Source: Alphaproteobacteria bacterium
GTDB taxonomy: Bacteria; Pseudomonadota; Alphaproteobacteria; Bin95
Assembly: GCA_964291285.2 (NCBI GenBank)
Contig: OZ219787.1
Coordinates: 1,120,001 to 1,184,000 of the forward strand
Reading direction: 5' to 3'
Length of the DNA stretch: 64,000 nucleotides
Made by a program: the position numbers and the translations under genes. Within the stretch, counting starts at the first letter, position 1; each line of letters begins with the position of its first letter. Positions 28,645-54,693 of this stretch are shown here, piece by piece. The notes under the pieces were generated by a model. The model ran no database searches. It had not been told where the DNA came from and saw only the letters and a program-made list of their open reading frames with translations.

Positions 28645-28906
28645 CGCAGTCCACCTCGCCGATGGTCCCGTTCTTCAGCACCGCTTCCAGACCGGGGCCG
28701 TCCAGCCCCAGCATTTCGTCCGCCAACGCCCGCAAAGCCCTGAGTTCGTCGCGCCGGAGGTTCTCCCGGTCGCTCTTCGCAAACCCGTGGACAAAAAACG
28801 CGAGTTCCCCCCGGCGCAACGGCAGGATCGCACGCACGCCCCCGGATTTGCCCCGGCCCGGCCGGGCGATGCGCTGCTTGATGACCCCGCCGCCGCCGTC
28901 CGGCAC
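28637..28906 (-). pseudogene. RelE/ParE-family toxin, N-terminally truncated
   Basis: GGGVIKQRIARPGRGKSGG...FFVHGFAKSDRENL is present, but the usual N-terminal segment is missing. Confidence 0.7.
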
Positions 28907-29219
28907 TACCGCCTCGGCAGTTTCCGTGCGGGGGGCCGTCCGTGCTTGCGAAGGGCGATGCCGCGGCGCGTGAGGAAGTTCCGTATCGCGACCCGGCTGA
29001 AGACAAGGCCGCCCGCCTCAAGCGCCCGGCGCAGCTCCGCCAGGGTGAAGCCCGGATTTTCGTCCAGGATGCCCAGAACGGCGTCGCGCGCCGCCTCGAT
29101 CTTCCACGAGCGGGTGTCGCCGCCCATCGGCCTGGGCCCCGGATGCCCCTGTTCGCGTTTGTTAGCGACGGTTACAGAGCGCGCCTATTCGCTGACATTT
29201 TTCGGCCGGTTGCGGTTTT

Positions 29220-30092
29220 TCAGTTGATCTGTTGGTCATCGGTTTCGATTGGTTCGCCGGCTCGGTCGCGGATGAGCATGTCGTTCCAGTCCCGGTTGTC
29301 GAGTGCGGGTCGCAGCCGGACGATTCTGGTGTCGTTGCGGGCGAGGCGCCTTGCGGCGTGATCGCCGTTTGTGGTGGCGTCGTATGCACAGAAGATGAGG
29401 CGCGGGTTCCATGCCTCGATCCATTTGGGGACTTTGGTGGCGACGGCGCCGGTGGAGACGGTGGCGCATTCGGTGCGTTTTACCGGGCCGAGGTGGAGGG
29501 AGAGGATGGAGAGTGCGTCGAGGGCGTTGCCGGCCAGGATGACGGCGTGTGGCCATTCGGTCTCCCAGGACATCCAGAAGCCGCCGCCCGCGGTCGTTTT
29601 GCGGTCAGCGGTGACGGTTTCGATGCCGGTAGCCTCGCCGGCGGCGTTTCGGCGGACGAACACGGGGTTGCCGTGAGGGTCGGCATGGACCAGGCCGAGG
29701 TCGCGGCACAGGGTGACGAGCGCGTCCGCGAGGCCGCGCCGCTCGACGAGGTATCGCCGGAGGTTGGGCCAGCGGGGGTCCTTGGCCGGCGCCTGCCGGC
29801 GGCCGCCTGGGGGCATTGAGAGGTCGGACAGTTCGGCGAGGAAGTCGATGGCGTCCGGCGGGGTGCATCCGAGCGCATGGACCGCCAGTTCGATAGCCCC
29901 GGCTCCCTCCTCTGCGCGCAGATGGTCGTAGAACATGAAGCGGTTGATGGAGAGGACCGATCCTGGCCGTCTCCAGCGCACGGCATTGTCGGGATCGCTG
30001 CGGTAGCCGAGGGCTCGGGCGACGGGTTCGAGGGGATAGCCCCGCAGGCTCTCGGCCCGCACCCGCCGCTCGCGGGGGCGGGAGGGATGCAT
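29220..30092 (-). CDS. DUF3991/Toprim primase-like passenger protein (degenerate active site)
   Basis: FYDH...GAGAIELAVH, RRYLVERRGL, ALDALS, IFCAYDA..GD, KDWND-like RDWNDML. Confidence 0.7.
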   Translation of the reverse strand: MHPSRPRERRVRAESLRGYPLEPVARALGYRSDPDNAVRWRRPGSVLSINRFMFYDHLRAEEGAGAIELAVHALGCTPPDAIDFLAELSDLSMPPGGRRQAPAKDPRWPNLRRYLVERRGLADALVTLCRDLGLVHADPHGNPVFVRRNAAGEATGIETVTADRKTTAGGGFWMSWETEWPHAVILAGNALDALSILSLHLGPVKRTECATVSTGAVATKVPKWIEAWNPRLIFCAYDATTNGDHAARRLARNDTRIVRLRPALDNRDWNDMLIRDRAGEPIETDDQQIN

Positions 30093-30094
30093 GG

Positions 30095-30889
30095 CTATGG
30101 CGACGGGACCGGGTTCGCCTTTCCAGTGCTTTGCCCGGCTTTCGGTCCGCGCCGGCGGCGGCGTTCGGCGCTGCGCTGCTTCTGACGTTCCTCGGCTTCC
30201 TTGCGGCGCCAGGAGTCGCCGTCGATGGCGACGATCTCGGCGTTGTGGACGAGCCGGTCGACGAGGGCGACCAGGCAGGCGGCGTTTGGGAAGGCCTCGC
30301 TCCACTCGGCGAAGGGGCGGTTCGTGGTGATTATGGTTGAGTTCTGCTGGCTGCGGCTTGAGACGATGTTGAACAGCAGGTCGGCGTGGCGGTTGGAGTA
30401 GGAGAGATATCCGACTTCGTCGATGACCAGCAGGTGCTGTCGGGCGTAGAAGCGCAGCCTGCGCTGGAGCAGGGTGTCGGAGTCGATGGCGGCGAGTTCG
30501 CCGAGCAGGCTGGCGGCGGTTGCGAAGCGCACGATGTGGCCTTCGAGGACGGCGCGGTGGGCGATATTGGCGGCGATGGTGGACTTTCCGACGCCGTTGG
30601 GTCCGACCAGTACGAGGTTTGCGGCCTCCTTGAGGAAGTCGAGGGTCATGAGGTCCTCGACGGCCATGCGGTCGCAGCGCCTTGGCCAGTCCCAGTCGAA
30701 GTCTGCGAGCGGCTTGAACTGTCCGAGGCGGGCGTCGGCGAGGCGGCGTTTGAGGCTTCGGGCGCGCTTCTCATCTTCTTCCCACGCGATCAGGGAGGCG
30801 AGCCAGTCGCGCTCCGCGACTTCGCCCCAATGGGCGAGGAGGCCGTGCAGGCCCAGCGCGCGGGCGCGGTTCATGAGGGTGTCGGTCAT
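30095..30889 (-). CDS. istB: IS21 helper ATPase IstB
   Basis: LADFDW, GPNGVGKS, LLVIDEVGY, ITTNRPF, ALVDRLVH. Confidence 0.95.
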   Translation of the reverse strand: MTDTLMNRARALGLHGLLAHWGEVAERDWLASLIAWEEDEKRARSLKRRLADARLGQFKPLADFDWDWPRRCDRMAVEDLMTLDFLKEAANLVLVGPNGVGKSTIAANIAHRAVLEGHIVRFATAASLLGELAAIDSDTLLQRRLRFYARQHLLVIDEVGYLSYSNRHADLLFNIVSSRSQQNSTIITTNRPFAEWSEAFPNAACLVALVDRLVHNAEIVAIDGDSWRRKEAEERQKQRSAERRRRRGPKAGQSTGKANPVPSP

Positions 30890-32391
30890 TCTTCGCTGTC
30901 CTTTTCATGGTAGCCGGCCAGCCCGTCGTATCCGCCGAGATCGTGATCGCGCACGGCGATGTCGCGCACGCGCGGGTCCCTGGGCAGGTCGATGGGGATC
31001 GGCGGCGGCCTGTCCTGCAGTTCGCGCCGCCGTGTGAGGCTGAGGCGCACGGCATTGGGATGGGGGACGCCGCGTTCGAGGGCCTCGTCGATGGCGGCTT
31101 CGAGCTCGGCGGCGCCGTATTGGTCGAGCAGGCGCAGCAGGGCGGCGACGGTGGCGCCGATATAAGCGCCGCGGGGGGCGGCCTCGGCGATCAGGCGCTC
31201 GCTGTTGGGCGCGGCCTGGAGCAGCCGGCTCTGCCCGCGCAGGCTGCGGGCGTGACGCTTGCGCCTGACCAGCTCCTCAATGTGTTCGGGGTTCTCGATG
31301 CGGGCCGCCTTGTCGAAGCTGCGCGGATGGCGGGCGATGACCTCCATGCCGTCGAGGATGCGCACCTCTTCCAGCGTCGCGGCCACGGTGAGGGTGCGCC
31401 GGACATGGGTATGCGGGACGCTGTAGTCATTGAGGTCGAACCTGGCATAGGGGGTCTTGGCGATCCTGACCTCGACCCTCTCGTCGACGGGGGGACGGTC
31501 GTCGGGCAGCGCCATCAGGGAGCCGCGCTCGCGCTCGAAGGCCTCGCTCACGGTGAGGGAGCGGTCGTCCGGCCAGGGGCGGTCGGCGGCGACGCCCTCG
31601 CACCACTCCCGGGCCTGGGCGTTGAGATCGTCGAGGTCACGCCAGGCGCGGGCGGCGAAGAAGCTGTCGCGCACATAGCGTATGGCCCGCTCGACGCGGC
31701 CCTTCTCGTTGCCTCGGGCGACCGCGACCGGCTTCGGCAGGAAGCGGTAGGCGCCTGCGAAGTCGAGAAGCCGGGGATTGAAGCGGATGGCGTCGCCGCG
31801 CCGCTCCAGCACGACGCTCTTCAGATTGTCGTACCAGAGCTCGCGGGGCACGCCCTGCCAAGCCTCGAAGGCCTCGACATGGCCGCGCAGGAAGTTGTCC
31901 ATCCCGGCGTTGAGGTAGAAGCGCAGGAAGAGGCGGCGCGAGTGGCCGAGCACCATCACGAAGGCCATCAGCGGGCGCTCCGCACGCCCGATCCTCACCT
32001 TGCCGAAGTGGGCCCAGTCGACCTGGGCCTGCTCGCCGGGCAGGGCCTTGAGGCGCAGATAGGCCTCGGCCACCGGCCGCGGACGCTCGGGCGCGATCAT
32101 GCGCCGGAAGTGGCTCTCGCACCCCCGGTAACCGCGCTCGACCGCCATCCGGTAGAGCCGGCTGGAGGGCAACTTCGGCCAGACCGCCAGGGTCTGGCGG
32201 ACGAAGGGCAGGAACGGATCGATCATCGAAGATCTGCGCCGCTTCTCAGGCGTGGGCGCCCCGGCGGCCGCCACCGCGCGCTCGACCGTGCCGTGGTGGA
32301 CGCCGAGCTGGCGCGCGATCGTGCCGATCCGCCACTTCTCGGCAAAATACAGCCGCAGGATCTCGGCCCGGGTCTGCTGGTCGATCGCCAT
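30886..32391 (-). CDS. istA: IS21 transposase IstA
   Basis: PGEQAQVDWAHFG, YDNLKSVV, NEKGRVERAIRYVR, NDYSVP. Confidence 0.95.
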   Translation of the reverse strand: MAIDQQTRAEILRLYFAEKWRIGTIARQLGVHHGTVERAVAAAGAPTPEKRRRSSMIDPFLPFVRQTLAVWPKLPSSRLYRMAVERGYRGCESHFRRMIAPERPRPVAEAYLRLKALPGEQAQVDWAHFGKVRIGRAERPLMAFVMVLGHSRRLFLRFYLNAGMDNFLRGHVEAFEAWQGVPRELWYDNLKSVVLERRGDAIRFNPRLLDFAGAYRFLPKPVAVARGNEKGRVERAIRYVRDSFFAARAWRDLDDLNAQAREWCEGVAADRPWPDDRSLTVSEAFERERGSLMALPDDRPPVDERVEVRIAKTPYARFDLNDYSVPHTHVRRTLTVAATLEEVRILDGMEVIARHPRSFDKAARIENPEHIEELVRRKRHARSLRGQSRLLQAAPNSERLIAEAAPRGAYIGATVAALLRLLDQYGAAELEAAIDEALERGVPHPNAVRLSLTRRRELQDRPPPIPIDLPRDPRVRDIAVRDHDLGGYDGLAGYHEKDSEE

Positions 32392-32392
32392 C

Positions 32393-32827
32393 TCACTCCC
32401 TTCGCGCCGGGCGCAGGCCCGGATAGACCGCCCGGGCGCAGAACCGCCCGCAGTGATCGCAGCGGAACACTCCGGCGGGACGGTCGGGTCCGAAGGGCCT
32501 CCTTCCCGAGCGCCCCGCCGGCATGCCCGCCACAACAGGACGGCGCGGTGAACGGGTCAAAGGGTGATGCGTCACTTTCTGCGCACGGCGCCCCTCCTCA
32601 GGCGCACGGACGCGACGGCGCTCGCGGTAGCGCCGCTGGCGTTCGGCATGCTTGTGACGGCCCCGCCGGCTGTTCTGGTAGCGACGCCCGGCAAGGCGCA
32701 GCGAGCGCCGCCGCGCCCGGCCGCTGCACGGACGCGAGCAGTAGATGTTGCCGTGGTCGCACCGCCGGCACAGCACAACCTGGCGATGGCACGAAGCGCA
32801 GGTGAACAGGCGGGCGGCGTTCCTCAT
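32393..32827 (-). CDS. Small Cys-rich (Zn-finger) basic protein upstream of istA
   Basis: CASC..LCRRCD..YCSRPC then Arg-rich helix HAERQRRYRERRR; lies inside the IS ends, stop abuts the istA start. Confidence 0.7.
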   Translation of the reverse strand: MRNAARLFTCASCHRQVVLCRRCDHGNIYCSRPCSGRARRRSLRLAGRRYQNSRRGRHKHAERQRRYRERRRVRAPEEGRRAQKVTHHPLTRSPRRPVVAGMPAGRSGRRPFGPDRPAGVFRCDHCGRFCARAVYPGLRPARRE

Positions 32828-33379
32828 CGCAAAGACCGATGAGAACGGGGTGGACCCACGCCCGAACGCCTACGATACTGCGCATACGGGCCGTGCCTTG
32901 CATGGCTCGGGGGGTGCGGCGCCGGTCGTTGCCACCTAGCAAACGGGGCCGGCGCCGCATCGTTCTCAGCAGCCCCAGTCTACCCCCTCGCGCAGCCCGG
33001 CGACCCCCGCCGACAGCGCCAGGACACCCTCCCCTCGGCAGGCGAAAATATCAACGCGACGGGGGCCGGCGACTCCAGTCGGGCTACGCCCTCCTTCCGT
33101 CCCAGGCCCCCGTCACAAACACCGCCGCACCACAATCACTGCGATCATCACGCCCCGCAAAAACGCGCAACGCCAGCAAATAAGCGCCTTTTACGACCGT
33201 CACCTACAGCGTTCGAGCCTGCGCCACGCGGCGATGGAAGACACGCTCACGCGGAACCGTTCCGCCGCCTCCCGGAAGCTCAGCCCTTCGGCGACCGTTT
33301 CGAGCACCCGGCGCCTCAGGTCCGGGGAAAGGGGTTTCGGCATGTCCGCCGGACCTCCCGCGCCGGCGGGGCCGGTTTA

Positions 33380-33394
33380 GAACATAACGGGAAT
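33380..33394 (-). promoter_or_regulatory. Candidate LexA (SOS) box in the promoter of the IS630-HTH ORF
   Basis: GAAC-ATAACGG-GAAT; on the - strand it lies in the spacer of TTTACA-N17-TAAACC. Confidence 0.6.
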
Positions 33395-33471
33395 ATTGTA
33401 AAGGACTGCCGCGCCGGCCCGGCCCCATGCGTCGCGAGGCCCCGGATCGGGGTCGGGGGCGGCCGGCGGCG

Positions 33472-34257
33472 CTACATGCCTTCGCAGACCACCGGATTGG
33501 AGAGGGTGCCGAGCCCGGAAATCTCGATTTCGCAGAGGTCGCCGTGCGCCATGTTCGGGCCGGCGCCTTCCGTGCCCATCCAGACCACGTCGCCCGGCAC
33601 CAGCGTCAGATAGCGGGACATGCGGGCGATGAAGGTCTCGACGGAGAAGATCATCGAGTCGGTGGCGAAGCGGATCGTCTCCTCGCCGTTCAGCCGCACG
33701 ACCGTTTCCGTCCCGGCCGGGTCGAACTCCGTGTCGATCCAGGGGCCCATCGGCGCGAAGCTGTCGGTGTTCTTGGCGCGCCAGAGCGTGCGGTCATGCG
33801 CCTGCCAGTGGCGCTCCGAGACGTCGTTGCCGATGGTGTAGCCGAGCAGGTGGGCGCGCACCTCGTCCTCGCGGATATTGCGCGCGGTCCGGCCGATCAC
33901 CGCCACCAGTTCGGCCTCGTATTGCACGCGCCCGGTTGCGTCCGCCGGGATGACGATGGGCTGCTTGTGGCCGGTTAGCGCGTTGACGGCGCGGTAGCCG
34001 ATGTCCGCGCTCTCCGGCAGGGACGGTATCTCGCCGCGCTTGTTGGCCGCCGCCACCGCATGTTCGGGATAGTTGAGGCCGGCGGCGTAGAAGGTGGGCG
34101 GCACGACCGGCGGCAGGAAGGCGGCGGTCTCCAGCGCGACCCGTTCTCCGGTCGGCGCATGCCCGTCGAAGGGGGATCCCTCGACGGTTGCGATGCTGTC
34201 CCCCTCGACGATGCCGTAGCGGGGTCCGTCCGCCGTCCCGATCCGCGCCCAGCGCAT
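33472..34257 (-). CDS. Fumarylacetoacetate hydrolase family protein
   Basis: AGLNYPEH, YEAELVAVIG, GYTIGNDVSER, AKNTDSFAPMGP, PGDVVWMGT. Confidence 0.92.
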   Translation of the reverse strand: MRWARIGTADGPRYGIVEGDSIATVEGSPFDGHAPTGERVALETAAFLPPVVPPTFYAAGLNYPEHAVAAANKRGEIPSLPESADIGYRAVNALTGHKQPIVIPADATGRVQYEAELVAVIGRTARNIREDEVRAHLLGYTIGNDVSERHWQAHDRTLWRAKNTDSFAPMGPWIDTEFDPAGTETVVRLNGEETIRFATDSMIFSVETFIARMSRYLTLVPGDVVWMGTEGAGPNMAHGDLCEIEISGLGTLSNPVVCEGM

Positions 34258-34400
34258 GGCGCTCCCTCCCACATGCCCGTTCCGGGCCCGCCATTGGTGG
34301 CGCGCACCCGACGGCCGGTCAAGTCCGGCGCAGTGTCCCCGGCGTCCCGCAGCCGGCATAATGGCGGCTCCATCGCCTGTTAGGGAAAGGGCAGAGGCAC

Positions 34401-35993
34401 ATGGTCGATCTCGCGCATCTCACGCTTGCCGGGGCCTCGCGGGCCATTGCGGCGGGGCAGTTGTCGTCGGTCGATCTGGTGGAGGCGACGCTCGCGCGGA
34501 TCGAGGCTTATGACGCCCGCCTGAACAGCCATGTGACGGTGATGGCGGAAAGCGCGCTCGCGGACGCCAGGGCGGCGGATGCGGAGATCGCCGCCGGACG
34601 CAGGCGCGGGCCGCTGCACGGCGTCACCGTCGCGCTCAAGGACATCTACGACACGGAAGGCGTGCTGACGGCGGGCGGCTCGAAGACCCGGCAGGACCGC
34701 GTGCCGGACGAGGACGCCGAGACCGTGCGCCGGCTGAAAGCGGCGGGCGCGGTCATCACCGGCAAGCTCGCCACGCATGAGTTCGCGCATGGCGGCCCGA
34801 GCTTCGACCTGCCCTGGCCGCCCGCCCGGAACCCCTGGAACACCGACCACTTCTCCGGCGGCTCGTCGAGCGGCTCCGGCGTCGCGGTGGCGGCGGGGCT
34901 GTGCCTGGGCGCGCTCGGCACCGACACGGGCGGCTCGATCCGCGGGCCCGCGGCGCTCTCCGGGGTCGCCGGGCTGATGCCGAGCTACGGGCTGGTCAGC
35001 CGGCGCGGCGTCATTCCCAACTCCTTCACCTTCGACCATTGCGGGCCGCTGGCCTGGACGGCGGAGGACTGCGCGCTGCTGCTCGATGCGCTGGCCGGCC
35101 ATGACCCTGAGGACCCGCGCTCCTCGACCCGCCCGCAGCACCCCGCGCCGCCTTCCATGGCCGGGCTCCGCGTCGGCCTTCTGCGCCACTACTGGGAGGA
35201 GGACCTGAAGTGCGCGCCGGAGATGGCCGCGGCCTGCGAACGCATGGCGGAGGTTTTCCGCAGCCTCGGCGCAAGCGTGGAGACCGCCCGCATGCCGCCG
35301 GTGCAGGACTGGTACGACGTCAAGATCACCATTGCCGAGAGCGAGCTCTTCAACGTCCACCGGCGCGACCTGCAGACGCGCCCGCGCGATTTCGGCCAGG
35401 ACTTCCTCTCCCGCGCGCTCGGCGCGGTCTGCTACACCTCGCAGGACTATATCGCCGCGCACCGGCGCTGGCGCCAGCTCCGCCGGGCGATGGAGCCGGT
35501 CTATGAGCGCTTCGACATATTGGTCGCGCCCTCGGCGACAGGCCCCGCGCCGCGCCTCGACGCGCACGACACCGCGAACTTCTGGCTCCATCCCAGCATC
35601 ACCACCCCCTTCGACGTGACCGGCGGCCCGGCGCTGACGATCACGGCCGGCTTCTCGGAAAGCGGCCTGCCGCTCGGCGTGCAGATCGCCGCCGCTCCCT
35701 TCCATGACCGGGTGGTTCTGGCGGCAGGCCAGGCCTTCGAGCAAGCCACCGAATGGCGCGACCGCCGACCGTTGCTTGAAGCGGGCCCGCCGCCGGAGCG
35801 CGAGGCGGTGTCCCTGCCCGCGCCCGTCCTTCCGCCCGAGGGGGAATTGCTGGACGAAGTGCGGATGCTCGCCGCCGCCGCCGGCCTGCCGGACGACGAT
35901 TATGTACTGGCCCTCATAGCCGAAGGCGCCCCCCACGCCCGCGCCATGGGCCGACGGCTGGACCGGGACTACGGATATAGCGACGAGATTTGA
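34401..35993 (+). CDS. Amidase (amidase-signature family)
   Basis: GPLHGV.VALKD, GGSSSGS, GTDTGGSIRGPA, GLPLGVQI. Confidence 0.93.
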   Translation: MVDLAHLTLAGASRAIAAGQLSSVDLVEATLARIEAYDARLNSHVTVMAESALADARAADAEIAAGRRRGPLHGVTVALKDIYDTEGVLTAGGSKTRQDRVPDEDAETVRRLKAAGAVITGKLATHEFAHGGPSFDLPWPPARNPWNTDHFSGGSSSGSGVAVAAGLCLGALGTDTGGSIRGPAALSGVAGLMPSYGLVSRRGVIPNSFTFDHCGPLAWTAEDCALLLDALAGHDPEDPRSSTRPQHPAPPSMAGLRVGLLRHYWEEDLKCAPEMAAACERMAEVFRSLGASVETARMPPVQDWYDVKITIAESELFNVHRRDLQTRPRDFGQDFLSRALGAVCYTSQDYIAAHRRWRQLRRAMEPVYERFDILVAPSATGPAPRLDAHDTANFWLHPSITTPFDVTGGPALTITAGFSESGLPLGVQIAAAPFHDRVVLAAGQAFEQATEWRDRRPLLEAGPPPEREAVSLPAPVLPPEGELLDEVRMLAAAAGLPDDDYVLALIAEGAPHARAMGRRLDRDYGYSDEI

Positions 35994-36090
35994 AGTTGCT
36001 TGGACAGAAACCGGGGGCGATCCTGCGCGTTCGGATGGAAGGCGGGGGCCGGTAGCTACTCTACCGGGCGTTGGCGCCTTGCTTCTCCTC

Positions 36091-36111
36091 ATGTATCATC
36101 ATATGATACAT
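36091..36111. promoter_or_regulatory. Candidate HigA operator palindrome
   Basis: ATGTATCAT-CAT-ATGATACAT just upstream of the higB start. Confidence 0.65.
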
Positions 36112-36118
36112 TCGTGCT

Positions 36119-36400
36119 ATGATCGTCAGCACCAAGGGCAAACGGGCCGCGGAAGCGGTTGCAGGCCGCTACGGTAAGGGCTTTCCGACGGATCTGACAA
36201 AACGGACGCGCGCCATGCTCTCGGCGATGAATGCGGCAACGGTCCTTGAAGATCTCCGGTTTCCTCCGGGAAACCATCTGGAGCGGCTCAAGGGCGATAG
36301 AACCGGTCAACATTCGGTTCGTATCAACGATCAATGGCGCATCTGCTTTGTGTGGACCGAGCAGGGGCCGGCAGACGTCGAGATCGTGGACTATCACTGA
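36119..36400 (+). CDS. higB: HigB (RelE-family) toxin
   Basis: DLRFPPGNHLERLKGDRTGQHSVRINDQWRICF...VEIVDYH. Confidence 0.92.
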   Translation: MIVSTKGKRAAEAVAGRYGKGFPTDLTKRTRAMLSAMNAATVLEDLRFPPGNHLERLKGDRTGQHSVRINDQWRICFVWTEQGPADVEIVDYH

Positions 36401-36411
36401 AGGGACCTGGG

Positions 36412-36702: not shown

Positions 36703-36766
36703 ATCTTGCGGCAGCGATATAACCAAATGCCCATCGGGCGTACTGCGGGATTTTTTCCGGCCAGCT

Positions 36767-36973: not shown

Positions 36974-37032
36974 TTCGCGATGTTCCTTGCCGAAAGCACG
37001 TTATGTAATAGAGGGTCAATTTGGGTCCACGC

Positions 37033-37697: not shown

Positions 37698-37887
37698 CCC
37701 GATGTTGTACCCGGCCTCCCGGCACGGAGCGGCGCCAAGAGGTCGATAGAAATGTACATCAAGGTTGGTCAATTGCAAGCTGGACCGAACGGCATACTCC
37801 GTCACTGCAAGGCGCGCTATGGCCAGCCGCCCCAACCCGGATTATTCCTGCAGGGACGGGAACCGTTGGCGGACGGGAGGACGGGGC

Positions 37888-45215: not shown

Positions 45216-45275
45216 GGCGGGGGAAAGACATTGACGCGCTGTTGACCCCGCACCCGGTTGCCGGCTTCTGTCCTG

Positions 45276-46700
45276 CTAGCCAGGCGCCCAAAAGGCGGTC
45301 GTGGAGGGGTCGCGAATTGCCGTGCGGCCAACCATGTAGCAATAGAAACTGGTGGGCGTGAAGTACAAGATCGAACCATCGCCCCAAGGCTCGATGCTGC
45401 CCTGTCGGGTGCGAGTGGTTGCAAGCAGGTGCGCGCTAGGGTGCCGCCTTGCAAATTCCCGAAGGCCTTTCAGCATTCCGGGATTTCTGAAATAGCGGTC
45501 CGACCACTTGACCTCGACGCACCAGTTCGGACTTTGTTGCCTATCGAGAAGCACGATATCCACTTCGCCATTCTGCCAGCGCGCATAGTGAAGGTTGAGG
45601 TCGGCATGGAACCATTGGGCAAAAACCGCGGTCTCCGCAATCGGGCCCATGGCCTCGTCTTCCGCCGTCACGGGGCCGAACAGTGCACAGCGCAAAGTGG
45701 GCGCGGTCACATAGACCTTGAAGGATGTCGTGCGCGTGAAGCGCCGGGCATTGCGGTCGATGCGGTGAACGATCCGGATCAGGAAGGCCGCCTCCAGATA
45801 TTCCAGATAGCGCCGGATAGTCGGCTTCGTAACACCGGAGCGCTGCGATAGCTCGTCGAGCGAGACCTCCTCGGCCGTGTTGAATACCAGGGTCATAAAG
45901 AGGGCATTCAATTCCTGCACGTTCTGAATGCCGTAAAGGCTCGGAAGATCGCGAAGGAGTACCTTGTCAACGATGTCGGCTCCGATATAGCGCGCGGGGT
46001 CGTCACGAATGGCGGGTGACGAAACGGCTTCCGGGAAGCCGCCGAAATTCACATAGTCGATAAAATGATTGTTCAACCCTTCCGGGTCGACAAGGCGGTA
46101 GGACGTATCGGTTACCGGTTCTACAAGCCCTGCGATGCCCTGAAGATCGAGAAATTCGTAGAAGGTAAGGGGAGGCAGCAGGAAGTCCGTGAAACGGCCC
46201 GCGCCCGATTCCATGCTCTTCAGGCGCAGCGCGGCGGCGGCCGACCCGGACACGACGCAGCGAATGCCGGGATGTGCGTCCACGAACGCCTTGAGGTGGC
46301 GTTCCCAGTCGGCCAGATACTGGATTTCGTCCAGGAAGAGCGCGCGGGGACCGTCGGCACTGCCGCTCGCCTCGCGGATTTCCCCGGCTATTTCCTCGAT
46401 GGAGAGCCGCGCATAAAGCGGCTGGTCGAGCGAGGCGTATCCGACGTCCCGGGGCGCGTAATCTGCTGCGGCGAGGAGGCGGTCGATGGCGTGGTGGATC
46501 AGGACGGTCTTGCCGACGCGCCTCGGCCCCATGAGAACCACGGCGCGGCGAACGCCCGTTTCTTCGACGAGTTCGGCGAAGCGCCGGAAATAGGCGCGCG
46601 GCTTCAGTCGGGCGTAGTCCTCCCGGATTCCGCCGCCGTCCCACCAGGGGTTGTCGGCTCTCAGGCGCTGATGCCGTTGGGTTGACGAAATCTCACGCAC
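45276..46700 (-). CDS. AAA_14 ATPase with DUF4143-like / PD-(D/E)xK C-terminus
   Basis: [23 protein letters not shown], wHTH-like [12 protein letters not shown]-terminal EVDIV...VEVKW. Confidence 0.85.
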
Positions 46701-47009
46701 CGCCCGAATGTAGCGTTACCCGCCGCCGAATTCAAGTTAAGCAAAGTCAACTTTCCTTATCGGGAAATCCCCGAAATTATCCATATATTTCAATTGGATA
46801 TAATTACACGAAATACCGTGAACCCGCACGAATCGTGGGAAATCGGCGCTTTCCTGCCTGCTGCCGGCCGCCCGCGTCCGGGCCTGCATTGCCGGCTGCG
46901 GTGGAAACGGCGTCGGTTCCGGGCGGTGTCCAGGGCGCCGGTCGAGCGGACCGGCGGGCCGAGGCCCGTGCCGGAGGAACTGCGCCCGGCGCCGCCCCAG
47001 GCGGGCGCG

Positions 47010-47453
47010 TCATCGCGGCGGGGCTTCCGGCCGCGCCCGGCCGTCCGCCGCAGGGTCCTTCCGGCGGCCGGCGAGGCGCTGTTTGCGTTCGAGGCCGTGG
47101 CGTTTCAGGAAGCGCTGCACCGTCATCGCGCTGAACGCCGCTCCCTCGGCGGCGAGCGCATCGCGCAGCCCGTACATGGAAATCGCCGGCCGCGCCTCCA
47201 GGATGCGGAGGATCCGCTCCCGCTCGGCTTCGATCCGCCACGAGCGGCGGTCGCCGCCCTGCCTGTCGGCCCGGAGCTGTCCGCGCTCGCGGAACCGCCG
47301 CACCCACAGGGCGACGCTGTCCCCGCCCACGTCGTAAAGCCGGCCCGCGGCCCGGGCGCTCATGCCCTTCTCCACCACCGCCGCGACCGCCCGGCGGCGC
47401 AGGTCCTCGCCGACCGCCCGGCCCCGCCGCCGCTCCGCCAATATATCCGTCAC
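47010..47453 (-). CDS. IS630-type HTH-only protein
   Basis: DLRRRAVAAV..GMSARAAGRLYDV..SVALWVRRFRERG..GGDRRS..RFLKRHGLERK; no DDE domain downstream. Confidence 0.75.
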   Translation of the reverse strand: MTDILAERRRGRAVGEDLRRRAVAAVVEKGMSARAAGRLYDVGGDSVALWVRRFRERGQLRADRQGGDRRSWRIEAERERILRILEARPAISMYGLRDALAAEGAAFSAMTVQRFLKRHGLERKQRLAGRRKDPAADGRARPEAPPR

Positions 47454-47595
47454 CGCTCCTCCCTTTCCGCTTCGCCGCCTTGCGGCAGGTTGATGGATAC
47501 TTGCGCCGTTTCCGCGCCGCCTGCATGTCCGTGATTACCCCTCAACTTCTCCGTCACGGCCCTCGCTTCCCCCTTGCAGCCTTGTATCGACTTGA

Positions 47596-48777
<1,182 letters not shown>

Positions 48778-48940
48778 CCGACAACACAGTCGCTCTCCCT
48801 GCGAGCGGCCGCCAGCCGGCCGCCGGGAGAGGCGCGTCTGTACAGGACGGGGAGCGATGCGCGGCGCCCGTGCAACCGCCGCTCCCCGTCTGTGCCGTCA
48901 GGTCATGGTCCCGTTCGCTCCCGCCGGATGCTTCTTTCTA

Positions 48941-48955
48941 GAATGAATATAGAAC
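48941..48955 (-). promoter_or_regulatory. Candidate LexA box overlapping a sigma70 promoter that faces the IS630-HTH ORF 47010-47453
   Basis: GAAT-GAATATA-GAAC; - strand TTGCAT-N16-TATATT. Confidence 0.6.
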
Positions 48956-49032
48956 AAATGAAGTGCAATGCAACCCATTAGAGGAAAAAAAACTTAAATA
49001 GTGTTATTTCAAAGGCTTCGACGTTCGCCCCG

Positions 49033-50391
49033 CTACGACCGGGCCTGCGGTTCGGAGGCCCGCCCGGCGGCGAAGGCCAGTGCGAGGGTGGCCAGGACCG
49101 GGACGGCGGCGGAGCCGAGGAAGACGGCGGCGAAGGCGTAGAGGAATGTGCCGCCGACGGTGTTGAAGGCGAGCATCAGGCCGGTTGCGCCCAGCACCAC
49201 GCCGAGCGTGCGCGTCATCATCACCAGGCTGCCGGCCACGCCCCGGTCCGCCAGCGGCAGGCTGCCGCTCGCGACTTCCAGATAGGCGACCTGGAAGATG
49301 CCGAGGCCCGCGCCGTGCACCAGCAGCGCGACCACCACGAAGGCCATGCCCGGCTCCGCGCCCCAGAGGCCGATGCCGGCAAGCCCGCCAGCGACCGCAA
49401 GCGCGCCGGCCGCCGCAATCAGTCTGCCGTCGCGGCGCTGCGCCCAGCGTCCGGCCAGGGGTGACGCCAGCGCCATCCCGAGCGGCGAGAGGGCGAGCAG
49501 AGCGCCCGCGGTCAGCACGTCCAGCCCGGCCACGCGGTCGAGCCAGAAGGGTACCAGCAGCATAACCGCGAAGCCGACGAGATTGACCGCAATGTTGCTC
49601 GCCGCTGGAATGGAGAAGCCCGGCCGGCGGAAGGGGGCCAGGCGGATGATCGGTGATGGATGGCTGCGGAGCGCGAACCAGGCGCCGGCCCCGAACGCCG
49701 CCAGCAGCAGCGCGAAGCCGAACCAGCCGCCGCTTGCCGCCCGGTTGATGCCGAGCAGCAGGCAGCCAAGCGCGAGGACCAGCAGCGCAGCGCCCACCGC
49801 GTCGAAACGGGGCGCGCCTCCGCCTGCGGCGGCCGCGGGCGGCGCGCGGAACAGCAGCAGGGCGGCGAGTGCGATCGGGGCACGGAACCAGAACACGCCG
49901 GCCCAGCCCATCGCGTCCACCAGCAGGCCGCCCAGCGAGGGCCCGACCGCGCCGCCGAGCGCGAACAGCAGCGTGTAGGCGCCGAGCACCCGCGCGCGCG
50001 ACGACTCGGGGAAGTAGGCCGTCGCCAGTGCCGGGCCGACCGCGAGCACCATCGCCGTGCCGACGCCCTGGGCCACGCGGGCGGCGAGCAGGATTTCGAA
50101 AGCCGGCGCGAGCGCGCAGGCGACGAAGGCGGCGATGCTCCAGGCGAGCCCGATGCGGAACAGCCGTGCATGGCCGAACAGGTCGCCGAGGCGCCCGCAG
50201 ACCAGCATCAGGCTCGCATAGGTCAGCACGTAGCAGATGACGACCCACTGGATGTCGCCGAGTTCGATGCCGAGGCTGCGGACGATGTCGGGGAAGGCGA
50301 TGTTGACGGCCGTGTCGAGCGAGCCGATGGCCGTGCCCAGCCCCACGACGACGACGCCCGCCGCCGCCCGCCTGCCCGGACCGCTGCTCAT
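49033..50391 (-). CDS. MFS transporter (DHA2-like)
   Basis: LDTAVNIAFP, QWVVICYVL, GRLGDLFGH, ARVAQGVG; many TM segments. Confidence 0.9.
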   Translation of the reverse strand: MSSGPGRRAAAGVVVVGLGTAIGSLDTAVNIAFPDIVRSLGIELGDIQWVVICYVLTYASLMLVCGRLGDLFGHARLFRIGLAWSIAAFVACALAPAFEILLAARVAQGVGTAMVLAVGPALATAYFPESSRARVLGAYTLLFALGGAVGPSLGGLLVDAMGWAGVFWFRAPIALAALLLFRAPPAAAAGGGAPRFDAVGAALLVLALGCLLLGINRAASGGWFGFALLLAAFGAGAWFALRSHPSPIIRLAPFRRPGFSIPAASNIAVNLVGFAVMLLVPFWLDRVAGLDVLTAGALLALSPLGMALASPLAGRWAQRRDGRLIAAAGALAVAGGLAGIGLWGAEPGMAFVVVALLVHGAGLGIFQVAYLEVASGSLPLADRGVAGSLVMMTRTLGVVLGATGLMLAFNTVGGTFLYAFAAVFLGSAAVPVLATLALAFAAGRASEPQARS

Positions 50392-50418
50392 CGCGCGGCG
50401 TTTCCCTCCGGACCCCGC

Positions 50419-51504
50419 CTACCGGAACTTCGGCATGATCTCTTCCGCGAACCGGCGGAAATTGCGCCGGTCCACGGCCTTGGGCGGCAGCAGCACGATC
50501 TCCCGGCAGCCGGCCGCTTCCATCGCCCGGATGCGCTCGACGATCAGGTCCGGCTCGCCGACCAGCCCGCCGGTCGCCTGCACCGTGGCGGGCGTGACGA
50601 AGCGGTGCTCCGCCTCGGGCAGGTAGGAGCAGTGGCCCAGATGGACGCGGAGGTGCATCCGGTCGTCCGGGATGCCGAGGTCCTTCAGGAAGCGGTTGTA
50701 GAGGTCCCAGTCGTCGCGGGCGTAGTCGGGGATGAACCCGTCATGGCCGACGATGCGGGCGTGCTCCCACCAGTAATGCAGCGTGGCGCCCACCTGCGCG
50801 CCGATCTCCTCGACGATATGCGGGTCGCTCACCTTCTCGCCCGGCTTCATGGCGCAGTAGAAGGTGAGCGTCGAGGCGTGGAAGTCCTCCGGCAGCGTGC
50901 GGTCCGCCTTCTCGGCCCCGGCCTTCACCCGGTCGAGATTGCGCGCCATGACGCCGAGCGGCTCGGCGCCCGCGCAGATGCGCCCGTCGCCGAGTTCGCC
51001 CGCGATCTCCAGCGCCCTGGGTCCATTGGCCGCGACATGGATCGGCACCGGCGGCTCGAAGCCGATGAAGCCCATCTCCCGGTTCTGGAAGCGGATGGGG
51101 CGCGTCAAGCCGTCATGCGTGAACGCAACCTCCTCGCCGTGCAGGAGGCCGCGCACCACGCGGAGATAATCGCGGAACGCAGCGGGCTTCATCGGGGGAT
51201 GGCCCATGATGCGCATGGCGGTGTGGCCGGTGCCGATGCCGAGAAAGGCGCGGCCGGGCGCAAGCCGGTTGATGGACGCGATCGAATGCGCTGTCACCGG
51301 CGCTAGGCGGGTGCCCGGTATCGCGACCCCGGTGCCGAGGCGGATGCGCGAGGTGTTGGCCGCCGCCAGCGCCAGCACCGCATAGCAGTCCGACCAGATC
51401 ATCTGGCTGTCCGGCGCCCAGCCGGAATCGTAGCCGAGCTCCTCGGCGAGCTGCAGCGTCTGCCACTCGTCGATCTTGGTGTTGACCATCGCGCCGAACT
51501 GCAT
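50419..51504 (-). CDS. LLM-class flavin-dependent oxidoreductase
   Basis: AEELGYDSGW, TSRIRLGTGV, APGRAFLGIGTG, IHVAANGPRALEIAGELGDG. Confidence 0.9.
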   Translation of the reverse strand: MQFGAMVNTKIDEWQTLQLAEELGYDSGWAPDSQMIWSDCYAVLALAAANTSRIRLGTGVAIPGTRLAPVTAHSIASINRLAPGRAFLGIGTGHTAMRIMGHPPMKPAAFRDYLRVVRGLLHGEEVAFTHDGLTRPIRFQNREMGFIGFEPPVPIHVAANGPRALEIAGELGDGRICAGAEPLGVMARNLDRVKAGAEKADRTLPEDFHASTLTFYCAMKPGEKVSDPHIVEEIGAQVGATLHYWWEHARIVGHDGFIPDYARDDWDLYNRFLKDLGIPDDRMHLRVHLGHCSYLPEAEHRFVTPATVQATGGLVGEPDLIVERIRAMEAAGCREIVLLPPKAVDRRNFRRFAEEIMPKFR

Positions 51505-51630
51505 GGGGGCGTTTCCTTCCATCGCAACGGCCCGGACTATAGCGCGCCGCCGCCGGCCGGCATTCCGGTTTGTCCGGGGCCTCTGTATCCTTGCACGGCG
51601 AACGGCTCCCGGAGGCGGAAGGACGGACCC

Positions 51631-52767
51631 ATGGCGATTGCCGAGCCCGCGTTCACTCTGGGCGTGGAGGAAGAGTATCTGCTGGTCGATGCGGAGACGG
51701 GCGCGCTTGCCTCCAACCCGCCGGAAAGCCTGATGGACGAGTGCGTAAGCGCGCTCGGCGAGCAGGTCACCAACGAGTTCCTCCAGGCCCAGGTCGAGAT
51801 CGGCACGAAGGTCTGCGGCGATATCGGCGAGGTGCGGGCGGAGCTGCGCCGGCTCAGGAGTGGCGTCGCGCGGGCCTGCGGCAATCACGGCCTCGCCCCG
51901 GTCGCGGCCTCCACGCACCCCTTCGGCGACTGGCGCCAGCAGGACTATGTCCACAAGGAGCGCTATGAGGGCCTCGCCCACGACATGCAGGCCGTGGCCT
52001 ACCGCATGCTCATCTGCGGCATGCACGTCCATGTCGGCATCGAGGACGAGGAGCTGCGCATCGACCTGATGAACCAGGCCCGGTACTTCCTGCCCCACAT
52101 GCTCTGCCTGACGACCTCCTCGCCCTTCTGGCAGGGGCGGGACACGGGGCTGGCGTCCTACCGGCTGACGGTCTTCGACGCCATGCCGCGCACCGGCCTG
52201 CCCGAGCCGCTGGCCAGCTGGAGCGAATACCAGCGCATGATCGAGCACATGACGAGCTCCGGCCTCTTGGAGGATGGCTCCAAGATCTGGTGGGACCTCC
52301 GCCCGAGCTCGCGCTTCTCGACCCTGGAGATGCGCATCTGCGACGTCTGCCCGGACATGGAGGACGCGCTCGCCGTCGCCGCGCTGTTCCAGTGCATCCT
52401 GCGCATGCTCTACCGCCTGCGGCTCGGCAACCAGCGCTGGCGTGACTATCCCAACATGCTGATCCAGGAGAACCGCTGGCTGGCGCAGCGCTATGGCAGC
52501 CGCAGCTGGCTGGTCGATTTCGGCAAGCGCGCGCTGGTGCCCTTCGCCGACCTCACGGACGAGCTTCTGGAGCTGGTGCGCGAGGACGCAGAGGCGCTCG
52601 GCTGCACGGCGGAGGTGGAGCGCGCCAGGCGGATCGCTGCCCGCGGCACCTCCGCCGAGCGCCAGCGCGCCGCCTGGGAAGCCGCCGGCGGCGGCGCCGA
52701 CAGCGACGCGGCGCTCCGCGCGGTCGTTCGAGAACTGGCGGCCGAGACGGTGAGCGGCCTTGACTGA
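51631..52767 (+). CDS. ybdK: Carboxylate-amine ligase (YbdK/GCS2 family)
   Basis: TLGVEEEY, GMHVHVG, SSPFW, WWDLRP, TLEMRICD. Confidence 0.9.
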   Translation: MAIAEPAFTLGVEEEYLLVDAETGALASNPPESLMDECVSALGEQVTNEFLQAQVEIGTKVCGDIGEVRAELRRLRSGVARACGNHGLAPVAASTHPFGDWRQQDYVHKERYEGLAHDMQAVAYRMLICGMHVHVGIEDEELRIDLMNQARYFLPHMLCLTTSSPFWQGRDTGLASYRLTVFDAMPRTGLPEPLASWSEYQRMIEHMTSSGLLEDGSKIWWDLRPSSRFSTLEMRICDVCPDMEDALAVAALFQCILRMLYRLRLGNQRWRDYPNMLIQENRWLAQRYGSRSWLVDFGKRALVPFADLTDELLELVREDAEALGCTAEVERARRIAARGTSAERQRAAWEAAGGGADSDAALRAVVRELAAETVSGLD

Positions 52768-52860
52768 ATAGTGGCCGGTGGCCAGTCGATAGTGGATAGG
52801 GTTCGGCCTGACCTGCTATTCACCAAACACCGACCACTAACCGCCGGAGCCCGGTCCCCC

Positions 52861-53904
52861 ATGCGCATCCTCGCCGGCCTCGTCCTCATCGCCCTTGCCG
52901 CCCTGCCCGTGCCCGCGCCCGCCGCCGATGCGGGGCCCGACCAGTATTGGCGCAAGGCCTGGCCCAACACGGATTTCAGCCGCCATTCGGTGCCGTTCGA
53001 GGAGATCGCGTCCGGCGGCGTCGCGCGCGACCAGATCCCGCCGATCGACGATCCCGTCTTCACCTCCGTTGCGGAGGCGGAGAAGCTGATCGCGCCGACC
53101 GAGCCGGTGATTTCGCTGACGGTGGACGGCGAGCGCCGCGCCTATCCGCTCGCGATCCTGATCTGGCACGAGATCGTGAACGACACCATCGCCGGCAGGC
53201 CCGTGGCGGTGACTTATTGCCCGCTCTGCGATGCGGCGCTGGTGTTCGACCGGCGGGTCGCGGGCCGGGTGCTCGATTTCGGCACGACGGGGCTGCTGCG
53301 CTTCTCGGACCTCGTGATGTGGGACCGGCAGACGGAAAGCTGGTGGCAGCAGTTCCTGGGCGAGGCGATGGTGGGGGAGCTGACGGGCGAGCGGCTCACC
53401 ATGCTGCCCTCGCGCGTCGAGAGCTTCGCGCGCTTCGCCGCCGCCGCGCCGGACGGAACGGTGCTGATGCCGAACGACCCGAACATGCGCAGCTACGGCT
53501 CCAACCCCTATGCCGGCTATGACGGCGCGCACTGGCCCTTCCTCTTCCGGGGCGCCTATCCGCTGGCGGCGGTGCCGCCGCTGGCGCGCGTCGCCATGGT
53601 CGGCAAGCGGGCCTGGACGGTGGACCTGCTGAAGGAGAAGAAGCGCATCGAGGCGGGCGACCTCGTGCTGGAATGGGCGCCCGGCCAGAACTCGGCGCTC
53701 GACAAGGGGGTGATCCGCGAGGGCCGCGACATCGGCAATGTCACCGTGCAGCGCCGCGCCGCCGCCGGCGGGCTGGTCGATGCGGTCCACGACGTGACCT
53801 TCGCCTTCGCCTTCCTCGCCTTCGTGCCGGACGGCGTCATCCACACCATCTGCGGCCCGTATGTGAAGCCGGAAACCCTGCCGGAGAACCTCGCCTGCGG
53901 GTAG
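52861..53904 (+). CDS. Secreted DUF3179-family protein
   Basis: Signal peptide; DQIPPID, RAYPLAILIWHEIVND, TYCPLC, MWDRQTESWWQQ. Confidence 0.85.
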   Translation: MRILAGLVLIALAALPVPAPAADAGPDQYWRKAWPNTDFSRHSVPFEEIASGGVARDQIPPIDDPVFTSVAEAEKLIAPTEPVISLTVDGERRAYPLAILIWHEIVNDTIAGRPVAVTYCPLCDAALVFDRRVAGRVLDFGTTGLLRFSDLVMWDRQTESWWQQFLGEAMVGELTGERLTMLPSRVESFARFAAAAPDGTVLMPNDPNMRSYGSNPYAGYDGAHWPFLFRGAYPLAAVPPLARVAMVGKRAWTVDLLKEKKRIEAGDLVLEWAPGQNSALDKGVIREGRDIGNVTVQRRAAAGGLVDAVHDVTFAFAFLAFVPDGVIHTICGPYVKPETLPENLACG

Positions 53905-53945
53905 GGGCCGGTGGGGCAGGCGGGGCGAGGGATCTACCGAGCCGC

Positions 53946-53977
53946 TTGACAGCTACCTGTTTGTTCCCTATATATTC
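53946..53977 (+). promoter_or_regulatory. sigma70 promoter with overlapping candidate LexA box
   Basis: TTGACA (53946-51)-N17-TATATA(TT); GTTC-CCTATAT-ATTC at 53963-53977. Confidence 0.65.
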
Positions 53978-54156
53978 CGTTTGACGAAGAAAACGGACCC
54001 ATCGGAGCCATGACCTGAACCAAGGGCGGCGGCCGCACGAGGCCGCATTGCGCCCCAGCGAATTCGGACCCGCAATGCCGGCGGCGCAGGCCGGGCGGCA
54101 AGCGGGAGGGGTGCGGCCGCCATGCAGGCCCTGGGGGGACGAAACGGCAGCAAATT

Positions 54157-54245
54157 GCGGTCAACCTGAGCCGAAAAAGGCCGTTTGTGGTGGTCGACCT
54201 GAGCCGAAAAGGGCCGTTTGTGGCGGTCAACCTGAGCCGAAAAGG
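54157..54245 (+). repeat. 33-bp tandem repeat, about 2.7 copies
   Basis: Unit GCGGTCAACCTGAGCCGAAAAAGGCCGTTTGTG; the last partial unit runs into the SD of the ORF at 54256. Confidence 0.9.
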
Positions 54246-54255
54246 AGAAGAGACG

Positions 54256-54693
54256 ATGACGAACGAAGTGGCGGACGGAACGGCGGGCGCGCCGGCGGCG
54301 GTCCTGCCGGTGCCGAGACAGGGCCGGGCGGTGAACGAGCAACTGCGGGGCCTGGTGCTGGCGGCCGTGCTGCATGAGGGCCTGACCGGCGGCGCGGCAG
54401 CGCGGCGGTTCGGGCTGGGCCGGGCGACGGTCAACCGGTGGGTGCGGCAGTTTCGCGAGACCGGCCAGGTGCGGGCCGGCGGGCAGGGGGGCAGCACCGC
54501 GCGGCTGGAGCGTTCGCGGGGGCTGATCCTCCGCATCCTGGTCGCGCGGCCGGACATTTCCATGTACGGATTGTGCGACATGCTCGCCGCCGAGGGGGTG
54601 AAAGCCAATCCGTTCACGCTGCAGCGCTTCCTGAAACGCCACGGCCTGGACCGCAAGAGCCGCCGCGCCCGGCGGCGGGGGAGCGGGGGCTAA
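54256..54693 (+). CDS. IS630-type HTH-only protein
   Basis: QLRGLVLAAV..AAARRFGL..TVNRWVRQFRETG..RPDISMYGL..QRFLKRHGLDRK; paralog of 47010-47453; no DDE domain. Confidence 0.75.
   Translation: MTNEVADGTAGAPAAVLPVPRQGRAVNEQLRGLVLAAVLHEGLTGGAAARRFGLGRATVNRWVRQFRETGQVRAGGQGGSTARLERSRGLILRILVARPDISMYGLCDMLAAEGVKANPFTLQRFLKRHGLDRKSRRARRRGSGG

Follow-up and report, generated by a model that had tools for sequence, protein, structure and literature searches.

The closest described relatives of the genes reported here are the OrfA proteins of two-frame IS630 insertion sequences (IS). The reference element used for comparison, L061 on the Komagataeibacter saccharivorans plasmid NZ_CP023041.1, is composed of two open reading frames (ORFs) in different frames, a 148-amino-acid (aa) orfA and a 203-aa orfB that encodes the DDE domain. 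Two-ORF IS elements such as IS1, IS3, and IS911 are known to encode OrfA-type products with regulatory functions. Examples of domesticated transposase DNA-binding domains are well known from eukaryotes, whereas bacterial cases are much less well documented. The window analyzed here is a 64,000-nt stretch of contig OZ219787.1 (positions 1,120,001 to 1,184,000, forward strand; assembly GCA_964291285.2) from an alphaproteobacterium of lineage Bin95. It contains three short genes, c1, c2, and c3, that match the helix-turn-helix (HTH) N-terminus of IS630 transposases and stop there. With moderate confidence, they are read as members of a lineage-specific, multi-copy family of orphan IS630 OrfA genes that is retained by the host, with promoters gated by a LexA-type operator and followed by a conserved leader. 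No description of such an HTH-only IS630 family was found in the portions of the literature searched.

Other known systems share parts of this arrangement. In the integron platform, a LexA-controlled intI gene lies beside the cassette insertion site. Small DNA-binding regulators are also found at defense loci. BrxR/CapW (WYL-domain proteins), CapH/CapP, and RptR are reported to co-localize with diverse defense systems, and CapH/CapP to link defense to DNA damage (PMC9122601, PMC9122589, 10.1101/2022.04.27.489752, PMC12255303). The published LexA box of Caulobacter crescentus is GTTCN7GTTC (PMC9578287 Table 1; PMC12700426).

The c1 gene lies on the reverse strand and is split by an IS21-like element. 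Its 5' part (33209..33343; 45 codons; Pfam HTH_23 at 29.7 bits and HTH_28 at 26.9 bits) and its 3' part (28906..29154; 82 codons plus stop) form a continuous reading frame once the insert is removed in silico, starting at 33343, resuming at 29154, and ending at 28906. The c2 gene (47010..47453, reverse strand) begins with GTG, and c3 (54256..54693) is on the forward strand. Their products have 127, 147, and 145 aa, respectively. Identity is 54.5% over 121 aa between c2 and c3, 40.9% over 110 aa between c1 and c2, and 30.9% over 110 aa between c1 and c3. No fourth copy of the HTH gene was found in the window by tblastn.

The NCBIfam IS630 model NF033545 aligns with c2 over profile positions 1-123 of 299 (E 5.5e-15) and with c3 over positions 6-119 of 299 (E 7.9e-12). 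Both scores are under the curated cutoff of 100 bits because one third of the model is covered. In Pfam, the window genes match HTH families only (HTH_23, HTH_28, HTH_32, and HTH_Tnp_Tc3_2), with no WYL domain, and PADLOC has no match for c2. The reference orfA matches the three window genes and 57 related loci (numbered L001 onward); the window proteins resemble it in size (~130-150 aa), in having two HTH subdomains, and in where they end, with 41-46% identity over ~110-125 aa. The plasmid tblastn search returned 103 records, all under 60% identity and mostly lying under genes annotated as IS630 family transposase.

The catalytic half of the transposase is missing. Pfam shows no DDE domain in the ORFs downstream of c1-c3, tblastn of the reference DDE orfB against the window gave no matches at E<=0.01, and no IS630-type DDE domain is present in 150 scanned downstream ORFs of related loci. 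Among the loci, orfB matches occur only in L051 and L059, and the L051 match belongs to a separate, unrelated full IS630 ~5 kb from the HTH gene. No terminal inverted repeats (TIRs) bracket the genes or the islets beside them in the window, where the only inverted pairs are internal and GC-rich. There are likewise no inverted ends at the boundaries of paralog DNA similarity, and no direct repeats delimiting genes or islets were found. The initial annotation had described three short IS630 N-terminal paralogs with neither DDE ORF nor TIRs, and the searches bear this out. A programmed-frameshift IS630 with a hidden DDE domain was considered and rejected, since Pfam has nothing for the overlapping ORF at 54438..55436 and the remaining downstream ORFs, or assigns them to unrelated families.

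The AlphaFold2 model of c2 (pLDDT 73.9, pTM 0.40) has two helical bundles, at residues 16-57 and 69-131, joined by a weak, low-confidence linker at 64-67. Foldseek against the PDB places Pax paired domains first, followed by the DNA-binding domains of SETMAR, Mos1, Sleeping Beauty (RED), and Tc3, all with weak scores (best E 3.7e-3, no match at E<=1e-3; TM 0.41-0.47). The model suggests a bipartite PAI/RED-like architecture without catalysis, as in Pax and in SETMAR, a domesticated Tc1/mariner product; unlike these, the window proteins are bacterial, stand-alone, and part of a multi-copy family. Because the IS630 match is confined to the N-terminus, with no DDE domain and no TIRs, c1-c3 are best described from their sequences as orphan OrfA-type descendants of IS630 that have probably kept the bipartite, paired-like HTH region and lost the DDE ORF and the element ends.

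An OrfA without a catalytic partner could still act on its relatives. The HTH proteins might be trans-inhibitors or regulators of IS630 transposition that bind IS630 ends without catalysis and are made on DNA damage. The reference IS630 naturally makes a 148-aa OrfA of the same architecture, the OrfA products of IS1, IS3, and IS911 offer precedents, and L051 holds a full IS630. However, identity to IS630 N-termini is just 39-47%, at least 4-8 diverged paralogs per genome stand against a full IS630 in 1 of 60 loci (619 kb), and no long relatives were found, although this last point is weak evidence. Such a role would also leave the fixed syntenic positions and the defense-side asymmetry described below unexplained, and it is judged improbable.

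The family is multi-copy within a narrow group. A protein search restricted to 80-258 aa returned 317 short homologs. The best 120 of these 317 are mostly 131-156 aa long and 60-95% identical, and several are encoded on the same long contigs. The genome scan gave at least 60 loci, 59 of 60 from a handful of uncultured Alphaproteobacteria that carry at least 4-8 copies per genome. Complete metagenome-assembled chromosomes with family members include OY730441.1, CBDBGH010000003.1, and OZ244041.1. A strict FLKRHGL-type motif is present in 48 loci, where the C-terminal tail after the motif is 11-54 aa (median 19). Ten further loci have a variant motif and equally short tails. Among the remaining forms, L056 is frameshifted and L059 (Sphingomonas) runs on into a DDE remnant. 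No longer, fused relatives were found among 8000 candidates, which is weak evidence, and among representatives at 50% identity, 135 of the best 150 are <=200 aa.

The orthologs are under purifying selection. The c2 gene and its ortholog in L001 have a ratio of nonsynonymous to synonymous substitution (dN/dS, Nei-Gojobori) of 0.33-0.46, the MFS and GMC genes that flank it in this pair have 0.14 and 0.16, and other ortholog pairs have 0.22-0.52. Paralog pairs range from 0.5 to 1.3. These paralog values are given no weight because third positions of ~85-90% G+C compress dS. The dN/dS check proposed in the initial annotation therefore speaks through the orthologs, at 0.2-0.5, and cannot be read from the paralogs at this third-position G+C. 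In the orthologous pairs L031/L044, L012/L014, L006/L017, and L020/L021, the promoter-leader-HTH module often diverges more than its flanks, e.g., 81% identity against 92-94% in L031/L044, which may point to faster evolution of the module or to gene conversion between paralogs.

These data bear on the view that the genes are functionless, decaying IS630 remnants with boxes present by chance. Signs of decay do exist: the IS21-like element breaks c1, the c2 leader holds an IS110 element, L056 is frameshifted, and paralog dN/dS is high. Against this, the same C-terminal end recurs in nearly all of the 60 loci, ortholog dN/dS is 0.2-0.5, conservation extends to the promoter and the leader, HTH promoters are enriched in the box, and frameshifted downstream DDE remnants, which the initial annotation named as the sign of debris, are seen neither in the window nor in the 150 downstream ORFs. 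Decay is almost certainly the wrong explanation, and the earlier view that these genes are not random IS debris holds.

Each window gene is preceded by a promoter-like region. For c3 (53946..53977, forward), a TTGACA at 53946..53951 and a TATATA at 53969..53974 are separated by a 17-nt spacer, and the box GTTC-N7-ATTC (53963..53977) overlaps the putative -10. For c2 (48941..48973, reverse), TTGCAT (48973..48968) and TATATT (48951..48946) are 16 nt apart, again with an overlapping GTTC-N7-ATTC (48955..48941). For c1 (33380..33403, reverse), TTTACA (33403..33398) is accompanied by ATTC-N7-GTTC (33394..33380), 37-51 nt 5' of the ATG; the c1-type orthologs L057 and L058 have GTTCTTTATTTGTGC in place of the window's ATTCCCGTTATGTTC. 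Boxes 2 and 3 are ~290-370 nt 5' of the start codons, with a long leader in between, and are not independent because they are homologous. Sites of the form GTTC-N7-ATTC or ATTC-N7-GTTC number 6 in the window, whereas local shuffles give 1.3 +/- 1.2; these boxes account for three of the six. Exact GTTC-N7-GTTC occurs once in the window.

In the family, the upstream regions align from the -35 box onward. The best site in 45 of 63 upstream regions reads CTTGAC(A/T), 11-12 nt, TTTGTTC, TATATAT or TCTATAT, and a second half-site. Promoters were also chosen by their -35 and -10 elements alone to avoid circularity (n=35). GTTC stands 0-2 nt before the -10 in 27 of these, and [GA]TT[CT] follows 11 nt on in 15 of the 27. 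The information profile reaches 2 bits at TTC and ~1-1.4 bits at G-T-T-Y, and the spacer between them varies. Exact GTTC-N7-GTTC was counted 15 times in the 618,626 bp of loci, with 8 of the 15 at HTH promoters on the strand of the gene, a concentration of ~40-fold. The 7 exact sites elsewhere have mostly GC-rich spacers or are intragenic, and no recognizable SOS gene was seen at them.

The half-site, the spacing, and the overlap with the core promoter agree with the Caulobacter LexA operator, and the match is exact in 8 related loci. The differences are that the window sites carry one mismatch (ATTC) and that the second half in the family is GTT(C/T) or weaker. The initial annotation had placed a LexA-type box over each promoter, and all three boxes are where it put them; the direct repeat is indeed conserved across the family, with one mismatch in each window copy. 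Because the repeat is common to paralogs whose proteins differ by 40-70%, a common trans-acting factor such as LexA would be favored over paralog-specific autoregulation. LexA control of the HTH promoters is thus well motivated, as judged from sequence.

The long leader is the second conserved part of the upstream region. It spans 200-420 nt between promoter and start codon, except in the c1 type, where it is short, and has two sequence anchors. The first of them is a tiny in-frame ORF of 2-4 codons found in 56 of 63 upstream regions, as ATGACCTGA (37), ATGACTTGA (1), 15-nt forms such as ATGATCTGGACCTGA (16), and ATGACCTGGTGA (2). It reads ATG-ACC-TGA, ATG-ACC-TGG-TGA, or ATG-A(C/T)C-TGG-A(C/T)C-TGA. 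The second anchor is a ACAGGGGAGGTGCGCGC-like motif, also written GGAGGTGCGC. In the window, the c3 leader (53978..54255, forward) holds the mini-ORF ATGACCTGA at 54010..54018, a GGGAGGGGTGCGG motif at ~54104..54116, and three 33-bp tandem repeats at 54142..54243. The c2 leader is in two parts on the reverse strand, a 5' part (48799..48940) with the mini-ORF ATGACCTGA at 48906..48898 and a 3' part (47454..47663). A nhmmer search with a hidden Markov model of the leader gave 53 matches. Two are in the window, a full one at c3 and a partial one at c2, and the other 51 are in the loci, all <=520 nt upstream of an HTH gene. The initial annotation mentioned neither the long conserved leader with its mini-ORF nor the fourth leader copy and the targeting by IS110 described below.

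Some leaders end in 23-45-bp tandem repeats. As a universal trait, repeats close to the start codon were rejected: Tandem Repeats Finder (TRF) reports a period of >=12 in 22 of 63 upstream regions, ~8 of them being 23-45-bp repeats near the start, and the TRF call at c2 is an artifact of the IS110 junction. A structured leader RNA is not supported either. Rfam gave no match at the gathering score in the window and a chance-level match for the c3 leader (E 0.29), RNAalifold predicted no pairs for 53 leaders, whose MAFFT alignment is poor in the variable middle, and leader folding energies are no better than those of shuffles (z -0.68 and -0.21).

The repeated unit can accordingly be described as a module with four parts. 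From sequence alone, these are (i) a putative sigma-70-type promoter, (ii) a candidate operator, the 11-bp-period repeat TTTGTTC-N7-GTT(C/T) over the -10 in the alphaproteobacterial LexA form, (iii) the 200-420-nt conserved leader with its predicted mini-ORF and GGAGGTGCGC motif, and (iv) the HTH gene. In two-ORF IS630 elements, by comparison, orfA is overlapped by a DDE orfB and the element has TIRs and a TA duplication, whereas the window family lacks all of these, sits at fixed syntenic positions, has its own promoter and long leader, and exists as many diverged paralogs per genome.

Such a module would work in steps. LexA would sit on the repeat and block RNA polymerase. On DNA damage, RecA-stimulated self-cleavage of LexA would let the module be transcribed, and the leader may provide a second control after initiation. 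The HTH protein would then bind DNA sequence-specifically, with the tandem repeats of its own leader, IS630 ends, and neighboring promoters as candidate targets.

Several results weigh against this reading of SOS-gated, host-retained genes. None of the three window boxes is an exact GTTC-N7-GTTC; each departs from it by one mismatch. With strict settings, a generic sigma-70 scan calls nothing in any of the three upstream regions, so the promoters are assigned by family conservation alone. The second half-site is degenerate in the 45 sites (GTTT 13, GTTC 11, ATTC 6, others 15), and the repeat is missing at this register in 18 of 63 upstream regions. Box-less subfamilies exist (L004, L007-L011, L015, and L016; L024, L040, L046, and L052), and a whole subfamily carries GGAT-AAAA-ATCC instead. 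The rhizobial -10 consensus is CTATAT, and the first GTTC could owe its C to a -10 of this kind. Direct repeats with an 11-bp period are typical of OmpR- and CtrA-type sites, and the repeat would also suit a regulator of that kind. The absence of predicted leader pairing and the ordinary folding energies, the paralog dN/dS values, and the promoters that the downstream genes seem to own count in the same direction.

Part of this evidence is what would be expected if the family is domesticated and TTTGTTC-N7-GTTY is not a LexA site. The repeat would then belong to an unusually strong promoter, with its T-rich spacer, CTATAT -10, and start-site region, or it would be bound by a different direct-repeat factor, e.g., a winged-helix response regulator or the HTH proteins, leaving expression uncoupled from DNA damage. 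The degenerate second half-site, with [GA]TT[CT] in 15 of 27 promoters only, the repeat-less subfamilies that retain the same leader and gene, and the OmpR/CtrA-like period all fit this. It accounts less well for the ~40-fold concentration of the exact sequence at these promoters, for a repeat that is kept while the rest of the spacer varies, for its presence at an equivalent position in highly diverged paralogs, including the short-leader c1 type, and for its identity with the published alphaproteobacterial LexA box. A non-LexA site is unlikely, if still credible, and LexA gating is preferred. Should LexA control prove true, the alphaproteobacterial SOS regulon would gain a lineage-specific branch in this family.

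The module has sharp edges. Paralogs share DNA similarity from the -35 box to a point 0-15 bp past the stop codon, which makes the repeated unit, i.e., promoter, leader, and HTH gene, 0.7-0.85 kb long. Between orthologous loci, the flanks are conserved, and homology commonly breaks ~0-50 bp from the stop codon and resumes after indels of 0.1-5 kb. The module is placed at conserved chromosomal sites with a variable, defense-rich 3' side. The c2 locus is orthologous to L001, with flanks 86-90% identical and an HTH gene 90.6% identical. Next to c2 is an AAA_14-DUF4143 ATPase (45276..46700, reverse) of the PADLOC candidate defense family PDC-S01; L001 has an unrelated 207-aa ORF at the equivalent position.

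The c3 locus is orthologous to L047, where the cargo is Dsr1, and to L050, where it is an IS5 and a C5 methyltransferase. In the window, the variable region after c3 (54694..62299, forward) begins with a small ORF in the opposite orientation, which separates the HTH gene from a C5 methyltransferase (55145..56245), followed by PDC-M33A (56242..58185), PDC-M33C/DUF6339 (59036..59797), and, distally, a Vsr-like mismatch-endonuclease fragment cut by an IS4-like element (60174..61973). The stretch 55145-60100, with a low-GC ORF at ~58186-58900 and a G+C of 48-50%, is a candidate multi-gene PDC-M33 defense system.

The c1 cargo (28327..28906, reverse) is a RelE-like ORF (28906..28637) followed by an intact HTH_3 antitoxin (28644..28327). 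The RelE-like ORF is truncated at its 5' end, having 89 aa against 124 aa in a plasmid homolog, with a match that begins near residue 38 of the latter. The point of truncation coincides exactly with the c1 stop codon (TAGTG overlap). All three copies thus adjoin defense or toxin-antitoxin genes, as had been noted earlier.

The same asymmetry is seen across the family. Genes at the loci were called with a simple home-made caller based on third-position G+C (GC3), which predicted 154 downstream ORFs. PADLOC was run on 69 proteins, i.e., 8 from the window, c2, and 60 of the 154 downstream ORFs without an obvious housekeeping Pfam match. The first downstream gene was positive in 12 of 56 loci and the first upstream gene in 0 of 55; counting up to three downstream genes, 14 of 56 loci were positive. 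Pfam adds FitA/PIN, PemK, and C5 methyltransferase genes in five more loci. PADLOC defense matches likewise accompany all three copies in the window and the fourth copy of the leader. Individual loci also show larger systems beside the HTH module: a complete type II CRISPR-Cas9/Cas1/Cas2 set in L038 (6624-11429), a Dsr1 (SIR2) defense gene in L047 (6705-10412), and an AbiEi/AbiEii pair in L019 (1964-2905).

With a small DNA-binding gene beside restriction-modification, Cas9, AbiE, Dsr1, and PDC candidates, the loci resemble those of BrxR/CapW, CapH/CapP, and RptR. They differ in that the protein is a transposase-type paired-like HTH without a WYL domain or protease partner, that the defense genes vary at one locus and appear to form separate transcription units, and that no operator is common to module and cargo. 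AT-rich promoter regions precede the cargo genes themselves. Together with the opposed ORF at c3, this leaves the regulation of adjacent defense genes, a role suggested in the initial annotation, without support as far as co-transcription is concerned.

The sharp edges invite the explanation that the module is a present or former mobile or duplicative cassette, or a landing pad. Defense and toxin-antitoxin genes would be inserted and exchanged preferentially at the stop codon, and the HTH protein would mark or assist this exchange, with a catalytic partner acting in trans. In favor are the paralog and ortholog boundaries, the different cargo between conserved flanks in L001, L047, and L050, the PADLOC asymmetry, the truncated relE abutting the c1 stop, and a full IS630 in at least one of these genomes (L051). 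However, no TIRs, target duplication, repeat of the gene's 3' end beyond the cargo, or recombinase inside the islets was found, and the window has no tRNA or tmRNA gene to anchor an island. Syntenic orthologs imply no recent movement, ordinary recombination can make variable regions beside any conserved gene, and the PADLOC comparison covers part of the downstream ORFs and depends on the home-made gene caller. The cassette or landing pad is considered improbable. For the related proposal of a non-autonomous element, made in the initial annotation, the evidence is mixed: the sharp repeat boundaries of the promoter-leader-gene unit speak for it, the missing TIRs and the syntenic orthologs against it.

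A bolder combination would make the module an SOS-controlled anchor for defense-gene turnover. The dead transposase DNA-binding domain would mark the junction at its own stop codon, a partner in trans would exchange the genes, the mini-ORF leader would be a second gate, and a dedicated IS110 would parasitize the leader. This is a long shot. By analogy with the integron platform, an SOS-type operator would control a gene next to a site that gathers unrelated genes; in contrast to it, the HTH module has no recombinase or attI/attC-like repeats, and its cargo is one to few genes with their own promoters. If true, it would amount to a novel platform that parallels the integron but lacks a recombinase, with DNA damage, e.g., from phage attack, as the switch.

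In the favored reading, an orphan IS630 OrfA has grown into a host-retained family with its own promoter, SOS-type operator, and long leader. If the LexA part of this holds, DNA damage would be linked to loci of immunity-gene turnover. The module might also help to locate defense hot spots in these uncultured bacteria.

The IS elements at the window copies are of separate families. The IS21-like element in c1 (29160..33208, reverse; 4049 bp) has istA (30886..32535), istB (30095..30889), and a 5-bp AACGC duplication. Its extra ORFs are a DUF3991/Toprim-like ORF (29220-30305) and a 144-aa arginine- and cysteine-rich ORF (32393-32827).

The IS110-family element in the c2 leader (47664..48798, forward) lies between box 2 and c2 at the motif CAGGGAGAG^GGTGCG, with ends uncertain by ~6 nt. 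A second copy (21024..23618, reverse) is split by an IS256/Mutator-family element with its transposase at 22248-23489. The two IS110 copies are 100% identical over the aligning segments of 1084 bp and 60 bp, and both are inserted at the identical point of the second leader anchor, CAGG(G)AGAG^GGTGCG (CAGGAGAG/GGTGCG target). The shared insertion point suggests sequence-specific targeting of the leader motif by this element. A site-specific IS110 of this kind could serve as a natural example of a programmable target.

The second IS110 copy interrupts a fourth promoter and leader copy (20889..21029, forward). This copy has TTGTAA-16-TATATT and the mini-ORF ATGACTTGA (20948-20956) within a perfect GAAC-N7-GAAC (20944..20958). 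It is diverged, has no HTH gene, and was recognized by eye only. It is followed, in the stretch 23613-27182, by a type IIG/ISP restriction-modification gene (23658..27182; 1174 aa).

One further restriction-type gene is present in the window far from the HTH genes. The ORF at 4304-5938 (reverse) encodes an N6/N4 DNA methyltransferase fused to an Mrr-type restriction endonuclease domain. A methyltransferase related to it adjoins the HTH module of L033.

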